Source of the DNA: Naegleria gruberi | Taxonomy: Eukaryota | Length of the DNA: 10,074 bases | Assembly (NCBI GenBank): GCA_000004985.1 | Contig: GG739029.1 | Strand: one strand, 5' to 3' | In this document: positions 1 through 9,106 of the stretch, one piece after another | How positions within the stretch are numbered: the first letter of the stretch is position 1 | Layout of the letters: each line of letters begins with the position of its first letter | Translations under genes and position numbers: made by a program | The notes under the pieces: model-generated | What the model saw: only the letters and a program-made list of their open reading frames with translations | Told to the model about the DNA's origin: nothing | The model's database searches: none

Positions 1-173
1 CAACCCTAATTTTGATTCCTTTTTCCTGATGATTTTCTTTTTAATTTGTAAATTTTCTCAAAGAATCTTGTTAATAAAATTTCAAAGATGATGAATTTTA
101 CTCAATTTCGTAATAATCTATTTTAGAATGTTAACATGACATGCTTAAATATCTTATAATTGAACAGTGAAGA

Positions 174-192
174 GGGAAGAGACATTAATTAC
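174..192 (+). repeat. 5' terminal inverted repeat (TIR) of the putative transposon
   Basis: GGGAAGAGACATTAATTAC; inverted match 17/19 to 2942-2960. A CAGTG motif lies 5 bp outside at 165-169. Confidence 0.5.
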
Positions 193-206
193 GCAACTTC
201 ATTTTG

Positions 207-223
207 ACCCCACTCGTATGTAA
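207..223 (+). repeat. Subterminal direct repeat, copy 1 (ACCCCACTCGTATGTAA)
   Basis: Perfect 17-mer, repeated at 239-255 with a 32-bp period. A GC-rich motif in an AT-rich leader. Confidence 0.8.
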
Positions 224-238
224 AATAATATGTTATCC

Positions 239-255
239 ACCCCACTCGTATGTAA
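239..255 (+). repeat. Subterminal direct repeat, copy 2 (ACCCCACTCGTATGTAA)
   Basis: Identical to 207-223. Confidence 0.8.
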
Positions 256-278
256 TGTAACTTTATTAAAAATTTTAA

Positions 279-316
279 GAAAAATCAAGCTTCGCTTTCA
301 GCTCGCTTGATTTTTC
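279..316. promoter_or_regulatory. Perfect 12-bp palindrome (GAAAAATCAAGC / GCTTGATTTTTC) with a 14-nt spacer, in the leader immediately upstream of the transposase ATG
   Basis: 279-290 is exactly the reverse complement of 305-316. It could form a DNA cruciform, a dimeric factor site, or a stable 5'-UTR RNA hairpin. Confidence 0.6.
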
Positions 317-369
317 TTTTTTGTAAGCTCAATAAAAAAATTAAAAAAATAATTAAAAAAAAAACCTCA

Positions 370-2838
370 ATGCAACTAACCCTCGACACCAAAACAAAAG
401 CAGTAGCTTCGAAGTGTTTCCACAATAACAGCAATAAAACACCTTACCTTCGATACATGAATGCCTATTGCTATTTCCATCTCACAAATACCAAAAAAGA
501 TATCAGAAGGGAAGCTCTGTTTGAGAAAGCAATTGGCTTTTATAGGAAGGAATTGAAGAGCAAAAATGATGAAATATTACATTTCGTGATCAAAAATTTG
601 GAAGACAATAATAAACAAATGTTTATTATTGATAATTTCCAAATAATTGAATTTTCACTTGAAGGGAGAGGTGTTTTTGACAGTGAAATTGCCAAATATG
701 CTACAACTCCTTCCCACCATTGTCCCAAGCAGGAGAGTTTGGCTAGTGAAATTGAACAACTTTCGAAACAAATTAGTGTTGCCCACACAGTCTATCAATC
801 TTGTGTCGATGTTGTGGGAATGGAATCTATTAAAGAGGAGGCAGAAATCAAACTCAGCAAACTATGTAGAAGTAAGATTGAAAAACAACAAAAACTTCAT
901 CAATATAAGGACAGAGCTTTATACATGAAATTATATAGAAGAAGAACAGTGGCTATCAAGCACAAAACAATAGGCAGGCCTAGTAAGGTTGGCAATATCG
1001 CAGAATTGTTAAAAACTACCCTGCCAGCAGATTACAGCGAAGCACATCCTCGCCGAAGAGATGGCCATATCTACACCTTGGCCAATGGTGTTGAGGTTAT
1101 CAAAGAAGGAATTGCTCTTATTAAGAACAAAACTGGGATAACGTACTCACCTTCTACTTTAAAACGTTTTTTTGTGGGGAAAAGAAAAACAAAAGCATTC
1201 AAGTTGAAGTCTAAGGATGCTTTTATTCGCGTAATGAAAATCAGAAGCAACAGAATGATTGAACACAAGGACAAACATATTGCGTGTGCGTTGATGAAAT
1301 ATATTCGTGAACTTGCTTTCAAATTAGATGATGATGTTACAGTGGTATCCGTTGACCAAAAGGCAAAGATTTATACTAAGGGTCCTGCTGTGAGTAAATC
1401 TACTGCTGTTGCTGTTGACTCATCATTAACAAGATCAAAACTACCAGCCCTTCCAGACCACAACTTCGGCAACACTAAGGAAAATAGTGTTACACCGAAT
1501 GTAATGTCAGTATTAAGAGTTTCTAAGGAAGGGAATAACATTACTTGGAAAAGACAATGCGTGCTTGTAAGGTTGCGCAGTAGTTGTAATGATGATAGAT
1601 TTTCGCATCTAGATGACCTTGAATGGTTTTTTGAAGAACTAAAACTCCGTAATTTATTACACGGAAACGTTATTATGATCACAGATAATGGGCCTAAAGT
1701 GCAACCAAGAAACAGGAAAGTTCAATCTGAAGCATATTACATTTTCAAAAAATACAATCTTGATTCATTAATTCAGTGCTCCTATAGTCCACATGCATCT
1801 GCTTTGAATCCAGTTGAGAAAGACCATTTCCCAATCTCAAAGAAGCTTGCTGGTTTATTCGATATAGATAAGGAGATATATGGATCGTCCAAAGAGCCCC
1901 AAAAAAGACAAAAGAATCACAATGTTGTGTTGAAGCAATTGTGTTTACTTATTAATGAAATACCATCATACCACTGCACATACGTCCCCACCAACCAAAA
2001 TTCAATTCCAAACACTCTGCCTTCTTGGCCAACTTGGGAAAATATTTTTTCCTTTTTGGAGGGAAAGGAAACAGAAGAGGATTGCTTGATCAAGAAATTA
2101 ATTAAGGATATTCATTACCTTAGTAGAGATGGTAATGGATTGTACACTTTTGTAATTAGAAAGGAAGATTCATCAACAACATTTTACCAACAGCTAGCAC
2201 AATACAATGGCTTCATACCTCACCCCATCCCTGACAAAAATAACCAAAGAAAAAACAATGAAGACTATCCCAACGACGATAATCTTCATTATTGTTTATT
2301 CGAAGATAGATTGAAAGATAATTCCATAGCCTTAAATTTACATTTCCCTTCATACCAACAATATGGAACCAAATTTATTTGCAAGTATTGTAAAAGATTT
2401 CATTATAGTGAGAAAGAATTGGAAGTTCATGCTAAATGTTGTGAAAAGACTTTATCAAATATAGAAGATGATTCATTGGAGTTACATGAAAAACAAACCA
2501 AACCAAACATTTTTTCAATTCCTGGACGAACATTGAATCATGCATTTTCACAATGTGTCACAGAAACTCTTCCGAGAAGAACAAAGAAGAGATCGTATAT
2601 TGATGTTGAAGAAGAACATGAAGAAGAATATCAAGAACAAGAATTGGAACAATCAGCAGATTATGATCAAGAACAAGAGAAGGAATTGGAACAAGAGAAA
2701 GAATTGGAACAAGAAGAGGAACCATTAAAGAAAAAGAAACGTGGTAGACCAAAGAAATCACAATTCAAAGAACCAATGAAATCTCAAGTTGAAGAAGCAG
2801 TAAAGAGAAAGCCTGGTAGACCACGAAAGAAGAAATAA
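370..2838 (+). CDS. Tc1/mariner-like DDE transposase, 822 aa from the first ATG. It has a C-terminal C2H2/C2HC-like zinc finger, an acidic E/Q-rich stretch and two AT-hooks.
   Basis: Uninterrupted ORF. The track ORF 307..2838 starts at a non-ATG upstream codon; the first ATG is at 370 after an A-rich leader. Motifs: KTIGRPSK (GRP linker), HTH-like GITYSPSTLKRFF, first D in VVSVDQKAK (GAC 1354-1356), second D in IMITDNGP (GAT 1684-1686), and SYSPHASALNPVE with E at 1816-1818 (compare Tc1 YSPDLNPIE). The D-to-E spacing is 43 residues by manual count. C-terminus: FICKYCKRFHYSEKELEVHAKCC (C-x2-C-x12-H-x3-C, about 2380-2448), acidic run EEEHEEEYQEQELEQ...EQEEE (2596-2724), and AT-hooks KRGRPKK (2737-2757) and KPGRPRK (2809-2829). 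Confidence 0.75.
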   Translation: MQLTLDTKTKAVASKCFHNNSNKTPYLRYMNAYCYFHLTNTKKDIRREALFEKAIGFYRKELKSKNDEILHFVIKNLEDNNKQMFIIDNFQIIEFSLEGRGVFDSEIAKYATTPSHHCPKQESLASEIEQLSKQISVAHTVYQSCVDVVGMESIKEEAEIKLSKLCRSKIEKQQKLHQYKDRALYMKLYRRRTVAIKHKTIGRPSKVGNIAELLKTTLPADYSEAHPRRRDGHIYTLANGVEVIKEGIALIKNKTGITYSPSTLKRFFVGKRKTKAFKLKSKDAFIRVMKIRSNRMIEHKDKHIACALMKYIRELAFKLDDDVTVVSVDQKAKIYTKGPAVSKSTAVAVDSSLTRSKLPALPDHNFGNTKENSVTPNVMSVLRVSKEGNNITWKRQCVLVRLRSSCNDDRFSHLDDLEWFFEELKLRNLLHGNVIMITDNGPKVQPRNRKVQSEAYYIFKKYNLDSLIQCSYSPHASALNPVEKDHFPISKKLAGLFDIDKEIYGSSKEPQKRQKNHNVVLKQLCLLINEIPSYHCTYVPTNQNSIPNTLPSWPTWENIFSFLEGKETEEDCLIKKLIKDIHYLSRDGNGLYTFVIRKEDSSTTFYQQLAQYNGFIPHPIPDKNNQRKNNEDYPNDDNLHYCLFEDRLKDNSIALNLHFPSYQQYGTKFICKYCKRFHYSEKELEVHAKCCEKTLSNIEDDSLELHEKQTKPNIFSIPGRTLNHAFSQCVTETLPRRTKKRSYIDVEEEHEEEYQEQELEQSADYDQEQEKELEQEKELEQEEEPLKKKKRGRPKKSQFKEPMKSQVEEAVKRKPGRPRKKK
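2641..2718 (+). repeat. Coding tandem repeat, 18-bp unit GAATTGGAACAAGAGAAA (E-L-E-Q-E-K), inside the acidic region of the transposase ORF
   Basis: GAATTGGAACAA occurs at 2641, 2683 and 2701. The copies at 2683-2700 and 2701-2718 are in perfect 18-bp register. Confidence 0.6.
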
Positions 2839-2927
2839 TTAAATAAATAATGTTGTTTACCCCCCCAATTATTTCGTAATTTTCTGGCCAACACCCCTAA
2901 ATAAAAAGTAAGATTTCTACCCCTCCT

Positions 2928-2939
2928 CCCCACTTGTAA
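2928..2939 (+). repeat. Degenerate third copy of the CCCCACTYGTA motif, just inside the 3' TIR
   Basis: CCCCACTTGTAA shares 10/11 with the CCCCACTCGTA core of the two 5' copies, in the same orientation. It sits 3 bp inside the 3' TIR. Confidence 0.35.
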
Positions 2940-2941
2940 CA

Positions 2942-2960
2942 GTAATTTGTGTCTCTTCCC
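2942..2960 (-). repeat. 3' terminal inverted repeat (TIR) of the putative transposon
   Basis: Plus strand GTAATTTGTGTCTCTTCCC; its reverse complement GGGAAGAGACACAAATTAC matches 174-192 at 17/19. Confidence 0.5.
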
Positions 2961-3069
2961 AGAATTGATAGGTCGAAATCCTTGGACAATTTATTGATGA
3001 ACACTGACGGATGTCTACCAAATAGTAGGCACAGGCAAGTACCTTACAATATGTGGCTAGTCAACTAAC

Positions 3070-3117
3070 ACTTGATTGATATGCTTCAAGAGACATAAAA
3101 CCTGTCATCAATCAAGT
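3070..3117. promoter_or_regulatory. 11-bp inverted repeat (ACTTGATTGAT / ATCAATCAAGT) with a 26-bp spacer in the IQG1-like promoter
   Basis: 3070-3080 is the reverse complement of 3107-3117. It lies about 180-220 bp upstream of the ATG at 3294. It shares the ATCAAG/CTTGAT core with the palindrome at 279-316. Confidence 0.4.
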
Positions 3118-3274
3118 TTCACAGCAAACAAGAAAACTCATCAAAAAAAAAACAAAATTGTTGTGGTGTTGGTTGTTGCCCATCCCAAAAACCTGTGCTG
3201 TACATTTTCCACATTAGAAACAAAGATTGACAAGTTAACCACTCGTCATTCAACAACAACACATTACAACAATA

Positions 3275-3283
3275 TATATAATA
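3275..3283 (+). promoter_or_regulatory. TATA-like element (TATATATAA) upstream of the IQG1-like ATG
   Basis: A TATATATAA run ends 11 bp before the ATG at 3294. Spacing is short for a canonical yeast TATA, so this is a weak call. Confidence 0.25.
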
Positions 3284-3293
3284 GATTTGTAAG

Positions 3294-3606
3294 ATGTCTG
3301 TCACCAAGATGGATCTCTCCATTGCGGAGAAGAAAGCCTACGACTTTCTTATTCGTCAGGAAGAAGCCAAACGTTGGATTGAAGAACTTATCCAAGAAAG
3401 TCTGCCTCCAGGCACTGCTAACTTTGGTGATAACTTGAGAGATGGTATTGCTTTGGCCAAGTTGGGTAAAATCTTTGCTCCAACAGCAATTAAGAAGATT
3501 AACACTCCAAAGTCAGGAAGTGTTTTGGAATTTATGGCTGTTGATAACATTTCCCAATTCTTTGAAGCATGTAAGAAGGTTAATTTCCCTGATCACTATA
3601 TTTTTG
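3294..3606 (+). CDS. IQG1: IQGAP-family protein (Iqg1-like), exon 1, encoding the first half of the calponin-homology (CH) domain
   Basis: Translation MSVTKMDLSIAEKKAYDFLIRQEEAKRWIEELIQESLPPGTANFGDNLRDGIALAKLGKIFAPTAIKK... aligns by eye with the IQGAP1 CH domain: EEAKRW, LPP, LRNGVYLAKLGNFFSP. The exon ends in phase 1 at G3606, immediately before GTATGT. Confidence 0.8.
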
Positions 3607-3836
3607 GTATGTGTTATAATAGTAACAGTTTTTATTCTAATCTATTATGTTCATATTGTTATTCAACTCGTATGATGATGATAATTTGTTGTTGTTATTC
3701 CTTACTTGCTGATTTCCCTCGCTTTTTTCATCAAATCACAAAAAATAATCATCACAAAAATAATGTTCTTCCTCCTATGATGATGGTGAATGATAATGTT
3801 ATTGTTGCTTGTTCTTGATAATATTAACTTTAACAG
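3607..3836 (+). other. Spliceosomal intron (230 nt) in the IQG1-like gene
   Basis: 5' GTATGT at 3607-3612, 3' ...TTTAACAG at 3829-3836. The candidate branch point TATTAAC at 3822-3828 is non-canonical against TACTAAC. The frame-0 continuation is low-complexity and stops at 3818. Splicing restores the conserved CH-domain sequence ...HYIF-E-VTDLWELKN.... Confidence 0.7.
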
Positions 3837-3952
3837 AGGTTACCGATTTGTGGGAATTGAAAAACGTTTGGAAAGTTGTTCACTGCTTACACACACTCTC
3901 CCTCCACTTGTATAGAAATGGCTTGGCCATTAGAATGCAAAACTTGCAAAAG
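3837..3952 (+). CDS. IQG1: IQGAP-family protein (Iqg1-like), exon 2 (partial), running into the N-run
   Basis: After splicing, g3606+ag3837-38 gives E, then VTDLWELKNVWKVVHCLHTLSLHLYRNGLAIRMQNLQK. This matches the second half of the IQGAP CH domain (human IQGAP1 ...DIYDRKNMPRCIYCIHALSLYLFKLGLAPQIQDL). The ORF continues into Ns at 3953. Confidence 0.75.
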
Positions 3953-5196
3953 NNNNNNNNNNNNNNNNNNNNNNNNNNNNNNNNNNNNNNNNNNNNNNNN
4001 NNNNNNNNNNNNNNNNNNNNNNNNNNNNNNNNNNNNNNNNNNNNNNNNNNNNNNNNNNNNNNNNNNNNNNNNNNNNNNNNNNNNNNNNNNNNNNNNNNNN
4101 NNNNNNNNNNNNNNNNNNNNNNNNNNNNNNNNNNNNNNNNNNNNNNNNNNNNNNNNNNNNNNNNNNNNNNNNNNNNNNNNNNNNNNNNNNNNNNNNNNNN
4201 NNNNNNNNNNNNNNNNNNNNNNNNNNNNNNNNNNNNNNNNNNNNNNNNNNNNNNNNNNNNNNNNNNNNNNNNNNNNNNNNNNNNNNNNNNNNNNNNNNNN
4301 NNNNNNNNNNNNNNNNNNNNNNNNNNNNNNNNNNNNNNNNNNNNNNNNNNNNNNNNNNNNNNNNNNNNNNNNNNNNNNNNNNNNNNNNNNNNNNNNNNNN
4401 NNNNNNNNNNNNNNNNNNNNNNNNNNNNNNNNNNNNNNNNNNNNNNNNNNNNNNNNNNNNNNNNNNNNNNNNNNNNNNNNNNNNNNNNNNNNNNNNNNNN
4501 NNNNNNNNNNNNNNNNNNNNNNNNNNNNNNNNNNNNNNNNNNNNNNNNNNNNNNNNNNNNNNNNNNNNNNNNNNNNNNNNNNNNNNNNNNNNNNNNNNNN
4601 NNNNNNNNNNNNNNNNNNNNNNNNNNNNNNNNNNNNNNNNNNNNNNNNNNNNNNNNNNNNNNNNNNNNNNNNNNNNNNNNNNNNNNNNNNNNNNNNNNNN
4701 NNNNNNNNNNNNNNNNNNNNNNNNNNNNNNNNNNNNNNNNNNNNNNNNNNNNNNNNNNNNNNNNNNNNNNNNNNNNNNNNNNNNNNNNNNNNNNNNNNNN
4801 NNNNNNNNNNNNNNNNNNNNNNNNNNNNNNNNNNNNNNNNNNNNNNNNNNNNNNNNNNNNNNNNNNNNNNNNNNNNNNNNNNNNNNNNNNNNNNNNNNNN
4901 NNNNNNNNNNNNNNNNNNNNNNNNNNNNNNNNNNNNNNNNNNNNNNNNNNNNNNNNNNNNNNNNNNNNNNNNNNNNNNNNNNNNNNNNNNNNNNNNNNNN
5001 NNNNNNNNNNNNNNNNNNNNNNNNNNNNNNNNNNNNNNNNNNNNNNNNNNNNNNNNNNNNNNNNNNNNNNNNNNNNNNNNNNNNNNNNNNNNNNNNNNNN
5101 NNNNNNNNNNNNNNNNNNNNNNNNNNNNNNNNNNNNNNNNNNNNNNNNNNNNNNNNNNNNNNNNNNNNNNNNNNNNNNNNNNNNNNNNNNNNNNNN
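3953..5196. other. Run of 1244 N (assembly gap or masked sequence)
   Basis: Literal n characters. Every track ORF crossing it (3809..5230, 3876..5216, 3880..5223 and 3887..5305) is an artefact of translating N as X. Confidence 0.99.
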
Positions 5197-5250
5197 GAAA
5201 GAGATTATTAAAGTGATGAACAAATCTTGACAATATTAAATCAGTATAGC
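5197..5250 (+). repeat. Copy 1 of a duplicated segment, the paralog of 10021-10074
   Basis: GAAAGAGATTATTAAAGTGATGAACAAATCTTGACAATATTAAATCAGTATAGC vs GAAAGAGATTATTTAAGTGATGAACAAATCTTGACAATATTAAATCAGTATAGC. The single difference is A5210 vs T10034. The duplication probably extends in both directions, beyond the N-run and beyond the window. Confidence 0.85.
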
Positions 5251-5763
5251 CAGTCAATTTTGGATAATGACAATTCCTTTGGAATAGCATGTCAACTATT
5301 AACAAGACTTTTCCAAGAAGTCGAGTGCAACAAACTGAGTGATGTTATTGTAAAATTAAGTGAAAAGTATTATAAGGAAATATCACCTGACATTTTAAGA
5401 ACATACACTAATTGTTTCACATTAAGAGAAGGAGTAGAACTTACTAATATTAAAGATTTTGAAGGGAGACTAAAACTCGATAACGCTATACAAAAATTTA
5501 TGGACATGATTATTGATCCTAAATGGGGAATCAAAAATACTTTCACAAACTTATTAATTACATCGATTAGTGTTTATGAAAGGAAAGTTTTGGATTGCGA
5601 TAAATTCAAGAAAGTGTTGACTCATATCACTGATCGATTAGAAAATCCATCAATGAATCCTACAACCTCATTCAGTTTTCTGGAACCCTCAACAGACTTC
5701 CCCGATTACTGGGAACTAGTAAAAACCATTGAAGAACTGAAAAAGCTAACGAAAAAGCTATGA
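5197..5763 (+). CDS. 3' end of kinase-like paralog copy 1 (its 5' part is lost in the N-run). A 184-aa C-terminal extension region, interrupted by an in-frame TAA at 5209-5211.
   Basis: In frame 1, 5197-5208 encodes E-R-D-Y, then TAA, then an open frame to TGA 5761-5763 (SDEQILTILNQYSQSILDND...KKLTKKL). 5197-5250 is 53/54 identical to 10021-10074, the tail of the kinase-like gene at the window end. There the same codon is TTA (Leu) and the frame stays open. The track ORF 5227..5763 starts at TTG, which is not a eukaryotic start. Confidence 0.5.
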
Positions 5764-6424: not shown

Positions 6425-9106
6425 TTACCTCTTTAATACACAATCACTGAAATCAACATCTTTAACACTGTACTTAATATGAGTGATGGAATCTTGATCT
6501 CTTCCTCCATTAGTTGTGAAGAATCCATTCTCTTTGACTCCTGTAGAATCAAAAGTAAGACAAATTTCATCCTCCCCAACCAAAACAAATGACCTATCAA
6601 ATGCCTTCAAAAGCCAAAAATCACTTTGACCTGCCTCAATGTCAAAATATTTGATATGTTCAAGAAAATGACAAAATTCATCCAACGATTTTCTATTCTC
6701 GAATGTAATGTTCTTCAAACCAATATAAGGGTTTGTAATGTTGCATGTTTTAAATAATGTTGCCAAATTTTCATTCACAAAGAAAGTTCTGTCAGTTTCT
6801 CCTCTTTTCAATTTGTCAAAATAAATTTTGAAAGATTCACTCACTGGAAGTGTCAAATTCAATGCCTCTAATAAATCTGAAACGAAATGTTGGCAATTAG
6901 CCCCTAATAATGAATAATTCTTGGTTGCATTGTAATTGCATGAAATTTTTGTAATCAATTCGAATGCCTTCTTGACATTGTCAGCTCCAGCAATTTCTCC
7001 AATATCAATGGCTGCAATGGTATTATTAGTATCAAGTTTCTGGTCTGAATCGCACTCAACTCTCACCAATGAATTATCATACCATTCAATTTTCCATTCT
7101 CCAATTAAGATTCCTGTGTGAACAACGCCATAATTATTTACATTAAGAATGGCTGCGAATGTAGCCATTGCCTTCTTGGTTAATTCGTGTTTTCCTAAAG
7201 ATGAAACCAATAACTTGACTCTCACAACTGCAGGAATATTGGAAACAATTCTTGAATTTTTCTTCATTGTAGGACGAACAAAGTGAAAATGCATGAATCT
7301 GTCTTCACAGACATATCTTTGAGCTTCCAAATCTAAACTTTCACTGTATCCGACCTTCTCTGGTGTAATGTTGAATTCTTTAAGGCATACTCTAATCTTT
7401 TTCTTGGCCATCTCAACACCTTTAAATTCGGCTTGTGATAATCTCCAGCTTTCTATTGGAATTTGAACATCATATTCTTGATTTTCATTCTCTACACCAT
7501 AAGATTCAGAGGTAACATATGGCCTAGTACTATTATTACATAACTTTAAGAAAGTACTTGTAGTTGTTGGACCATTGGAATCTCTTAAAGTTTTAGAGAA
7601 TGCTCGGTCAACCTTGCCATTCCTTAAATTATCAAAATACTTGTCAAAGCATTCACTCTTTGGAAGTTGCAAATTCAAAGCAGATAGTACCTCAGATGTG
7701 AAATGTTGGCAATTGGCTTTGAATTGGTGATATTGAACTGATCCATTATATTTACAAATAATTTCTGTCAACTTTCTAAATGTTTGCTTAACATTTTCAG
7801 CACCACGTATTTCTCCAATGTCAATTATTGCAAGTGTCTTGTCAGATTCGATTTGTTCACTCCTTATACTAACAGTTGATGAGTTGACCCATTCAATCTT
7901 CCATTCACCAATTAAAAGGCCAGTATGAACAATTCCCATATCAGCATTTGAAAAGTAGCTCATTAACTTGGTCATAAAAGGACTATTACCTAAATCAGAA
8001 ATCAACAACTTGACTCGCAGAAATGGTTCACAATTAACTTTGTTTGATTTTAGGTTTACAATAGAACTCATAAATTCCCTATTTAGTAATCTATCTTCAC
8101 AGACCAAGTTTTGGGCATCCACTTCCAAATCGCCTGTCATTCTAGCATCTTTGGGAGTTCTATTATTCTTTTTCAAGAAATCATAATATTTCTCTAACTT
8201 TTTCTTGACCGTTTCAACCCGATCCCTTTCTAAAAATGTTAGTGCAGTTTTAATAACAGCAGGTGGTGGAATACCTGCCTCTGATGGATTTGTAACTGAC
8301 AACAAAGCTTTTAAGTGTTCGAGAAGGTTAGAATGTAAACCCATTATCTCCTTCGTTGTTTCGTCAATATATTTTCCCACCCCAATCCGGCGCTTTTCAC
8401 GAATCATCATTTGAGCAAAAGTTTCTCCCTTAATCCTAAGAGGCTGTCTAGTAAGCAATTTGAATAATATACATCCCAAACTAAATAAGTCTGCAGATTT
8501 ATCCACTATTTGAGATGCCAATAATACCTCTGGAGCTGTATACTCATTGCTGTGTCTGAATTCTGATGGCTGGTTGTCTAGCACAGAATATTTGAAATCG
8601 AATAATTTAAATGTAAAGTCCTCTTCGAAAAATAAAATGTTTTCAGGTTTTAAATTTCCATGAATAATATTCATGGAATGTAATTTAAGAAGTCCTTTTT
8701 CTATTTGACTATAAATTTTCAAAGATTCTTCCAAATTAGGTTCATAATAAGTTAAATATTCATTCAAATTACAGGTTCCTTTGGGAGAAATTGAATATTT
8801 CAAAAACATGTCATAATCACCTGTATCCCATATTGGGACAATTTCATGTTGATTTACAATTTGTTGTCTTATTTTTTCATGCTTATTGCATTCGTATTCA
8901 GTTAGTATTGTCATTATTATTTCAGAATTGCCATTACCCGAAACTTGTCTCACTCCATAAAATTTCTCTCCTATAGGAACTTCATATTGTCCAATTTTTT
9001 CAATATTTGCGCAATTTTTTAGCTTCAATATTGATGGATTTTCTTTGATCAAATCCTGTTTGGTTGATACTATTATTTTGGTTTGTGAAGAATGTGACGA
9101 CCCCAT
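6425..9106 (-). CDS. 893-aa multidomain protein with an N-myristoylation motif (MGSSHSS), a degenerate kinase domain, two tandem PPPDE/DeSI-like putative Cys peptidase domains, and a C-terminal region of unknown function
   Basis: Single uninterrupted minus-strand ORF. Kinase-like core: ...NIIHGNLKPENILFF (catalytic-loop HRD replaced by HGN, minus-strand codons 8654-8662), FDFKYS (DFG replaced by DFK), EYTAPEVL (APE), DLFSLGCILFKLL. Two repeats of about 270 aa each carry the PPPDE (PF05903-like) hallmarks: VRVKLL[IV]S.LG, VHTG[IL]LIGEWKIEW (compare DeSI GVFHSGIEVYGREFAYGG), IDIGEI, and ANCQHF (compare DeSI HKNCNHFSSAL). Both retain His, at nt 7925-7927 and 7118-7120, and Cys within NCQHF, at 7700-7714 and 6884-6898. 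Confidence 0.85.
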   Translation of the reverse strand: MGSSHSSQTKIIVSTKQDLIKENPSILKLKNCANIEKIGQYEVPIGEKFYGVRQVSGNGNSEIIMTILTEYECNKHEKIRQQIVNQHEIVPIWDTGDYDMFLKYSISPKGTCNLNEYLTYYEPNLEESLKIYSQIEKGLLKLHSMNIIHGNLKPENILFFEEDFTFKLFDFKYSVLDNQPSEFRHSNEYTAPEVLLASQIVDKSADLFSLGCILFKLLTRQPLRIKGETFAQMMIREKRRIGVGKYIDETTKEIMGLHSNLLEHLKALLSVTNPSEAGIPPPAVIKTALTFLERDRVETVKKKLEKYYDFLKKNNRTPKDARMTGDLEVDAQNLVCEDRLLNREFMSSIVNLKSNKVNCEPFLRVKLLISDLGNSPFMTKLMSYFSNADMGIVHTGLLIGEWKIEWVNSSTVSIRSEQIESDKTLAIIDIGEIRGAENVKQTFRKLTEIICKYNGSVQYHQFKANCQHFTSEVLSALNLQLPKSECFDKYFDNLRNGKVDRAFSKTLRDSNGPTTTSTFLKLCNNSTRPYVTSESYGVENENQEYDVQIPIESWRLSQAEFKGVEMAKKKIRVCLKEFNITPEKVGYSESLDLEAQRYVCEDRFMHFHFVRPTMKKNSRIVSNIPAVVRVKLLVSSLGKHELTKKAMATFAAILNVNNYGVVHTGILIGEWKIEWYDNSLVRVECDSDQKLDTNNTIAAIDIGEIAGADNVKKAFELITKISCNYNATKNYSLLGANCQHFVSDLLEALNLTLPVSESFKIYFDKLKRGETDRTFFVNENLATLFKTCNITNPYIGLKNITFENRKSLDEFCHFLEHIKYFDIEAGQSDFWLLKAFDRSFVLVGEDEICLTFDSTGVKENGFFTTNGGRDQDSITHIKYSVKDVDFSDCVLKR
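6845..7228 (-). other. PPPDE/DeSI-like domain 2 (aa about 627-754)
   Basis: VVRVKLLVSSLG...GVVHTGILIGEWKIEW...AAIDIGEIAGADNV...GANCQHFVSDLLEALNL. Confidence 0.7.
7661..8023 (-). other. PPPDE/DeSI-like domain 1 (aa about 362-482)
   Basis: FLRVKLLISDLG...GIVHTGLLIGEWKIEW...AIIDIGEIRGAENV...KANCQHFTSEVLSALNL. Confidence 0.7.
8207..9001 (-). other. Degenerate (pseudo)kinase domain of the 893-aa protein
   Basis: Roughly aa 36-300. Candidate G-loop remnant IGEKFYGV, HGNLKPEN, DFK, APE. The catalytic Asp of HRD is Asn and the DFG glycine is Lys. Confidence 0.65.

Follow-up and report, generated by a model that had tools for sequence, protein, structure and literature searches.

Zator is among the rarest and least studied of the eukaryotic DDE superfamilies, and it was reportedly defined (Bao et al. 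2009) by a 3-bp target-site duplication together with derivation from "transposase 36" (Pfam07592) elements. We know of no biochemical reconstitution of a Zator transposase; the literature that we searched describes none, and our sequence searches found no solved Zator structure. Published work relates Zator to the bacterial ISAzo13 insertion sequences, with 3-bp duplications made by both (PMC10045372; PMC5718144), and reports 33-bp terminal inverted repeats (TIRs) and 3-bp duplications for Zator-1 of amphioxus (PMC12905397), while some authors put Zator in a wider IS630-Tc1-mariner group (PMC7386202; PMC8533490). Here, we describe an element of 2,787 bp that lies at positions 174-2960 of a 10,074-nt stretch of Naegleria gruberi DNA (GCA_000004985.1, contig GG739029.1), which we call the window and whose numbering we use throughout. 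A preliminary description had read this element as an intact but atypical Tc1/mariner-like transposon. We consider it very probable that it belongs instead to the Zator superfamily, which comprises the eukaryotic relatives of ISAzo13/TP36, and that it is a cut-and-paste DNA transposon of autonomous type with one gene, for an 822-amino-acid (aa) DDE transposase. The element shows transposase homology to ISAzo13/TP36, a 3-bp target duplication, and TIRs bounding a single transposase gene.

We searched for homologues of the product of the element's 822-aa open reading frame (ORF), hereafter the window protein, by running HMMER exhaustively against 1.84 billion representative proteins. This search returned 161 homologues at E≤1e-3, the best of which was P0001 (KAG2382213.1), a 738-aa protein of Naegleria lovaniensis labelled "hypothetical/C2H2" that aligns over aa 16-723 with 33% identity (E = 6.6e-71); further relatives are numbered from P0002 on. 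Annotated as no more than "hypothetical" or "C2H2-domain" proteins, the relatives come from N. lovaniensis, insects, a springtail, molluscs, a fish, and many metagenomes. Scans of the window ORF alone against Pfam, NCBIfam, and PDB sequences gave zero matches, and since these libraries easily detect Tc1/mariner transposases, this argues against an ordinary member of that group. When 51 relatives were scanned against Pfam and NCBIfam, 11 matched the Pfam model PF07592 (DDE_Tnp_ISAZ013; best E, 1.8e-7) and 18 matched the NCBIfam ISAzo13 transposase model NF033519 (best E, 1.7e-11), while a single one matched IS630 (NF033545), and that weakly (E = 0.006). Neither the window protein nor its relatives matched DDE_1, DDE_3, Transposase_1, HTH_Tnp_Tc3, or Tc5; the profile check against DDE_3 and Tc1-like families suggested in the preliminary description led to ISAzo13, through the relatives, instead. 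A tblastn search of 7.3 Gb of plasmid sequence with one relative yielded two weak matches only, and both lay inside annotated ISAzo13 transposases.

We then compared profiles by hhalign, using reference alignments of 7 ISAzo13 (L013-L019) and 5 IS630 (L020-L024) transposases taken from bacterial plasmid records. The window subclade (the window protein, P0001-P0004, and P0022) aligned with ISAzo13 at 97.1% probability (E = 7.2e-11, 249 columns) versus 0.4% with IS630 (E = 0.14), and the broader eukaryotic family aligned with ISAzo13 at 99.3% (E = 2e-20) versus 1.1% with IS630 (E = 0.051). The motifs of the window subclade and ISAzo13 fell in register: GRP with GRK, SVDQK with SIDTK, PDHNF with DHDF, TDNGP with CDGGG, and NPVE with NPIE. 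Bacterial ISAzo13 and IS630 were also related to each other by profile (97.5%, E = 6e-12), which accounts for the Tc1/mariner-like motifs noticed in the preliminary description and agrees with the wider IS630-Tc1-mariner grouping of some authors. The eukaryotic Zator-like family has drifted past detectable IS630 similarity.

The features of the element and its transposase gene, with coordinates and strand, are as follows.

171..173, no strand: left target-site duplication AGA, read from the sequence and equal to 2961-2963.
174..192, plus strand: left TIR, GGGAAGAGACATTAATTAC, supported by an inverted-repeat scan, shuffle tests, and the N. lovaniensis terminus.
207-228 and 239-260, plus strand: two subterminal direct repeats, ACCCCACTCGTATGTAA, 91% identical; candidate transposase-binding sites.
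277..318, plus strand: perfect stem-loop of 14 bp within the element's 5' untranslated part, its arms 100% complementary.
370..2838, plus strand: transposase ORF, 822 aa, uninterrupted, with ATG at 370 and stop at 2836-2838.
973..1179, plus strand: conserved GRP motif at aa 202-204, with a helix-turn-helix region beyond it (aa ~233-270); predicted TIR-binding domain.
1327..1869, plus strand: RNase H-like DDE core, with D329 at 1354-1356, D363-H364 at 1456-1461, D439 at 1684-1686, and E483 at 1816-1818.
1870..2379, plus strand: conserved C-terminal domain lacking the family cysteine cluster (aa ~583-606), defined by alignment and by the structural model (confidence score pLDDT mostly 85-95).
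2380..2442, plus strand: C2H2-like zinc finger, CKYCKRFHYSEKELEVHAKCC, seen in the sequence and with equivalents in relatives.
2602..2721, plus strand: acidic, E/Q-rich low-complexity tract (aa 745-784), recognized by repeats in the sequence.
2728..2835, plus strand: two AT-hook-like motifs seen in the sequence, KKKKRGRPKK (aa 787-796) and KRKPGRPRKKK (aa 812-822).
2927..2941, plus strand: right subterminal C-rich motif, CCCCACTTGTAACAG, read from the sequence and related to the left subterminal repeats.
2942..2960, minus strand: right TIR, reverse complement GGGAAGAGACACAAATTAC, the imperfect partner of 174-192.
2961..2963, no strand: right target-site duplication AGA, read from the sequence.

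The catalytic motifs of the window protein, VSVDQK (D329), ITDNGP (D439), and NPVE (E483), are exactly those first reported, as is the hand-counted D-to-E spacing of 43 residues, which does lie outside the 34-41 of described Tc1/mariner families; the 822-aa ORF is likewise intact. In the family alignment, D329, K331, D363, and H364 are invariant and D439, N480, and E483 are near-invariant, and all of them are kept in the window protein. The length of the protein and its spacing had been regarded as atypical, and both turned out to be normal among its relatives, which reach ~800 aa (85 of the 246 that we fetched exceed 550 aa) and have a spacing of 43 in 49 of 50 aligned proteins. The zinc finger (C671-x2-C674-x12-H687-x3-C691) has equivalents in P0001, P0002, P0005, and P0006, and a C-terminal finger is part of the family profile; some relatives match Pfam C2H2 models, and the family profile weakly matches solved C2H2 fingers. 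Because the relatives share them, we regard the "double length," the finger, and the DD43E spacing as family characters. The finger, acidic tract, and two AT-hooks that had been listed as unusual C-terminal features are all present, with the finger proving typical of the family and the tract and hooks alone being peculiar to the window copy. The acidic tract is absent from P0001, and no tract or AT-hooks were found at the C termini of the 246 fetched relatives. Against the window protein, the Pfam AT_hook model gave E = 0.042, a sub-threshold score expected for a 13-residue motif.

We modelled residues 185-705 of the window protein with AlphaFold2, using an alignment of 54 homologues (mean predicted local distance difference test [pLDDT], 78.8; predicted template modelling score [pTM], 0.80). 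The model has the canonical RNase H-like topology (strand1-strand2-strand3-helix-strand4-helix-strand5-helix), with D329 on strand 1, D439 right after strand 4, and E483 starting the helix after strand 5, so that the window protein carries the DDE triad on the RNase H-like fold by which Zator transposases are recognized. The invariant D363-H364 pair falls in a low-confidence loop preceding strand 2. Mos1 was the nearest solved fold to this model, followed by SETMAR and Sleeping Beauty; at the sequence level, comparison of the family profile with PDB sequences gave weak coiled-coil and C2H2 matches only and no solved homologue. The predicted DNA-binding region has a GRP motif whose G and R are nearly invariant across the family, a weak match to HTH_33 at aa 249-268 (E = 0.22), and helices in the AlphaFold model, and it aligns with the GRK motif and helix-turn-helix region of bacterial ISAzo13 transposases.

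The boundaries of the element can be judged by comparison with its closest relative. P0001 and its identical copies are encoded at five N. lovaniensis loci (L001-L005; GCA_003324165.2) with unrelated neighbour genes at each. Comparing these loci defined an element of 2,545 bp (locus coordinates 2800-5344) that begins GGGAAGTGCCACTAATTAC and ends GTAATTAGTGGCTCCTCCC, and whose five copies differ by 0-4 nt. All five are flanked by perfect and distinct 3-bp duplications (ATA, TCT, ACA, TTG, and AAT), and there are two mismatches between their TIRs. To judge from its sequence, the N. lovaniensis element is clearly a recently active Zator-like transposon, the proteins of which have been annotated only as hypothetical or C2H2-domain proteins.

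The 19-bp TIRs of the window element are present as previously described, matching at 17 of 19 positions with an exact 11-nt core. Shuffling the two ORF flanks 200 times produced a match this good only twice; a degenerate TIR pattern found these two sites only within the window, and 0 of 200 shuffles yielded two matches. The window TIR is identical to the terminus of the multicopy N. lovaniensis element at 16 of 19 positions, and this homology rules out a chance match. The layouts of the N. lovaniensis and window elements also agree, with 201 versus 196 nt before the ATG and 127 versus 122 nt after the stop. Given that the terminus and the layout agree with those of the N. lovaniensis element, we conclude that the window TIR is a genuine transposon end, that the boundaries lie at 174 and 2960, and that the AGA/AGA found immediately outward of both TIRs is a 3-bp target-site duplication. 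The TA duplication that the preliminary description proposed to look for was not found, either at the window element or at the five N. lovaniensis copies with their varied 3-bp sequences. We see the window element as a newly described representative of Zator, an established superfamily, and nothing about it falls outside known transposon biology.

Several observations weigh against this classification or limit its reach. A 3-bp flank match alone has a chance of roughly 2%, and a single copy of the element is visible in the window. The window protein, P0001, P0002, and P0004 match no Pfam or NCBIfam transposase model, so that the link of this subclade to ISAzo13 rests on profile-profile comparison and transitive homology. 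The best relatives score 17-39 bits on NF033519, and the window protein nothing, against its curated cut-off of 200, which indicates distant homology rather than membership in the bacterial family. Placement in Zator was made via ISAzo13 homology and published traits. Finally, the window copy lacks a conserved cysteine cluster (2116-2190, aa ~583-607), which may mean that its transposase is impaired.

This last point raises the possibility that the classification is right but that this copy is an immobile relic, with an ORF that is open by chance and a transposase disabled either through the missing cysteine cluster or through further substitutions. The cluster, H...KCxDxxCC in most full-length relatives, is replaced in the window protein by VIRKEDSSTT with ~8 residues deleted in comparison with P0001-P0004 and most other relatives; the TIRs differ at 2 of 19 positions, and we saw one copy and no identical or near-identical protein on record. 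However, the cluster is also missing in P0022, P0009, and P0005, the C-terminal domain is still modelled with high confidence, and the downstream C2H2 finger is kept. Two TIR mismatches are likewise found in the obviously recent N. lovaniensis copies. The window copy keeps D329, K331, D363, H364, D439, and E483 and runs for 2.5 kb without a stop or frameshift; with its ORF, invariant residues, both ends, and duplication intact, its sequence would favour competence. We regard a relic as unlikely, although it is the alternative that deserves the most weight.

A second alternative is that the ORF is a host gene derived from a domesticated transposase, of the pogo/CENP-B-like kind evoked in the preliminary description or similar, that acquired chromatin-binding AT-hooks. 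The intact ORF, single-copy as far as is visible, and the presence of the acidic tract and two AT-hooks in none of the retrieved relatives would fit such a history. Against it, a mobile element present in several copies has TIRs homologous to those of the window element, the target duplication is intact, and the catalytic triad is complete; the element also occupies an intergenic, promoter-proximal site ~330 bp upstream of a calponin-homology (CH)-domain gene. Pfam gave no match to DDE_1, HTH_Tnp_Tc5, CENP-B_N, or pogo in the window protein or its relatives, and we reject pogo/CENP-B domestication on the missing domains and intact TIRs. Domestication of any kind appears highly improbable. Least probable, to the point that we give it almost no credence, is a Tc1/mariner member with unusual DD43E spacing and extra C-terminal domains, since its look-alike motifs (DNxP after the second D, YSPxxxxLNPVE), the rank of Mos1 among solved folds, the ISAzo13-IS630 relationship, and the wider IS630-Tc1-mariner grouping (PMC7386202) are outweighed by the 3-bp, non-TA duplications of varied sequence and by the profile comparisons, significant with ISAzo13 and insignificant with IS630; on these grounds we reject Tc1/mariner proper. 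The earlier reading is right in seeing an intact DDE transposon with a distant tie to Tc1/mariner, and wrong in its family assignment and in its expectation of TA duplications.

For the Zator-like element, classical DDE cut-and-paste is most likely the mode of transposition, a view that draws on known DDE transposases for the assignment of DNA binding and for the chemistry. The N-terminal GRP motif and helix-turn-helix would bind the 19-bp TIRs and probably also the subterminal RAGTGGGG motifs. The RNase H-like core (the triad D329, D439, and E483, plus K331 and D363-H364, whose invariance is specific to the family) would coordinate metal ions and excise the element, through metal-dependent hydrolysis and transesterification at the element's 3' ends. 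The core would then join these 3' ends to the target with a 3-bp stagger, the repair of which would leave the AGA/AGA duplication.

The noncoding parts of the window element offer candidate sites for such binding. The subterminal repeats are of the form ACCCCACTCG; a related motif, CCCCACTTGT, adjoins the right TIR. Viewed on the plus strand, the subterminal sequence CCCCACT(C/T)GTA occurs three times: both units of the 22-nt direct repeat near the left end hold it, and a further copy abuts the right TIR. Since all three copies lie on the plus strand, they are mutually direct rather than inverted. The stem-loop at 277-318 has a DNA fold of -13.5 kcal/mol (z = -3.7), which was equalled by 0 of 200 shuffles. 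At a comparable place in the N. lovaniensis element there is also a perfect hairpin, although its sequence is unrelated (L001 2845-2877; z = -8.9). The keeping of a hairpin structure without sequence conservation suggests a function, possibly in regulating transposase expression or as a protein-binding palindrome. The acidic tract and AT-hooks form a lineage-specific appendage that may, speculatively, serve as a nuclear-localization signal and/or a tether to AT-rich DNA.

We also looked for the element beyond the window. When metagenome contigs were scanned for the TIR pattern, 7 matches came up, none of which had a partner TIR, similarity to the element, or a transposase, and we took these as chance; a scan of viral contigs found no relatives of the window element. 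The surroundings in the window are those of an AT-rich (33% GC) eukaryotic genome. The CH-domain gene lies at 3294-3953, starting ~330 bp downstream of the transposon; it has a 230-nt GTATGT...AG intron (3607-3836) and is incomplete, running into an assembly gap of 1,243 N at 3954-5196. On the minus strand, 6425-9106 holds an 893-aa ORF with an unusual combination of a protein kinase domain and two PPPDE (Peptidase_C97)/LRAT-like domains, and its first residues, MGSSHS, are a possible myristoylation signal.

The window element probably shares one heterolobosean lineage with the N. lovaniensis element, which was recently active. More tentatively, and with considerable doubt, we suggest that this is a separate heterolobosean Zator lineage, marked by termini of the form GGGAAG...TAATTAC, by a hairpin conserved in the 5' part, and by a transposase with a long extension at its N terminus, that could be currently mobile, given that the N. 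lovaniensis copies differ so little from one another; the window copy would have lost the cysteine cluster and gained its tail, possibly retargeting the transposase to AT-rich chromatin. If so, the lineage could give experimenters a tractable Zator system. In so rare and little studied a superfamily, a complete copy together with a recent multicopy relative is a useful lead, and it provides defined ends, a 3-bp signature, and a residue set for mutagenesis (D, K, DH, D, E; DD43E), and the two elements are a plausible source of a new transposon tool. For annotation, the window ORF should be masked as a Zator transposase rather than called a host zinc-finger/AT-hook gene or a Tc1/mariner element, and many "hypothetical / C2H2 domain" proteins of protist and animal genomes could likewise be annotated as transposases.

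Compared with the systems to which it is related, the window element is closest to that of N. lovaniensis. The two share architecture, similar lengths of their untranslated ends, similar termini, 3-bp duplications, a perfect 5' hairpin, a C-terminal C2H2 finger, and a transposase that aligns over most of its length. The N. lovaniensis element differs in its protein sequence, in having the cysteine cluster, in lacking the acidic tract and AT-hooks, and in its G-rich subterminal blocks, which are inverted in orientation and lie 25-48 nt in from either end. Tc1/mariner and IS630 elements, such as Mos1 and Sleeping Beauty, resemble the window element in having an N-terminal helix-turn-helix followed by a DDE domain, in the NP(I/V)E motif, and in the link between ISAzo13 and IS630; yet they make TA duplications, have a spacing of 34-41, and encode proteins of ~340 aa, whereas the window element has 3 bp, 43, and 822 aa, and they show no significant direct profile similarity to the window protein family. 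Bacterial ISAzo13 insertion sequences are alike in their homologous GR(P/K) motif, helix-turn-helix, and DDE core, in the motif order D(x)K, DHDF, D(G/N)G, and NP(V/I)E, and, according to the literature, in 3-bp duplications, and one example from Nostoc has a D-to-E spacing of 42 versus 43 in the window protein. Their proteins are ~390-400 aa long and are without the eukaryotic N-terminal extension, C-terminal domain, and zinc finger, and the eukaryotic proteins score far under the curated ISAzo13 family cut-off.

Relative to Zator itself, for example Zator-1 of Branchiostoma, the window protein is too diverged for a direct PF07592 match, and it shares with the rest of its subclade, made up of the N. 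lovaniensis protein and a few from metagenomes, a conserved extension of ~190 aa at the N terminus. The window TIRs are 19 bp long versus 33 bp in amphioxus Zator-1, and the window copy adds the acidic tract and two AT-hooks while being without the cysteine cluster. What the window element and Zator have in common is an ISAzo13/TP36-related transposase with its DDE triad on an RNase H-like fold, encoded by the only gene between short TIRs, and 3-bp duplications of variable sequence.

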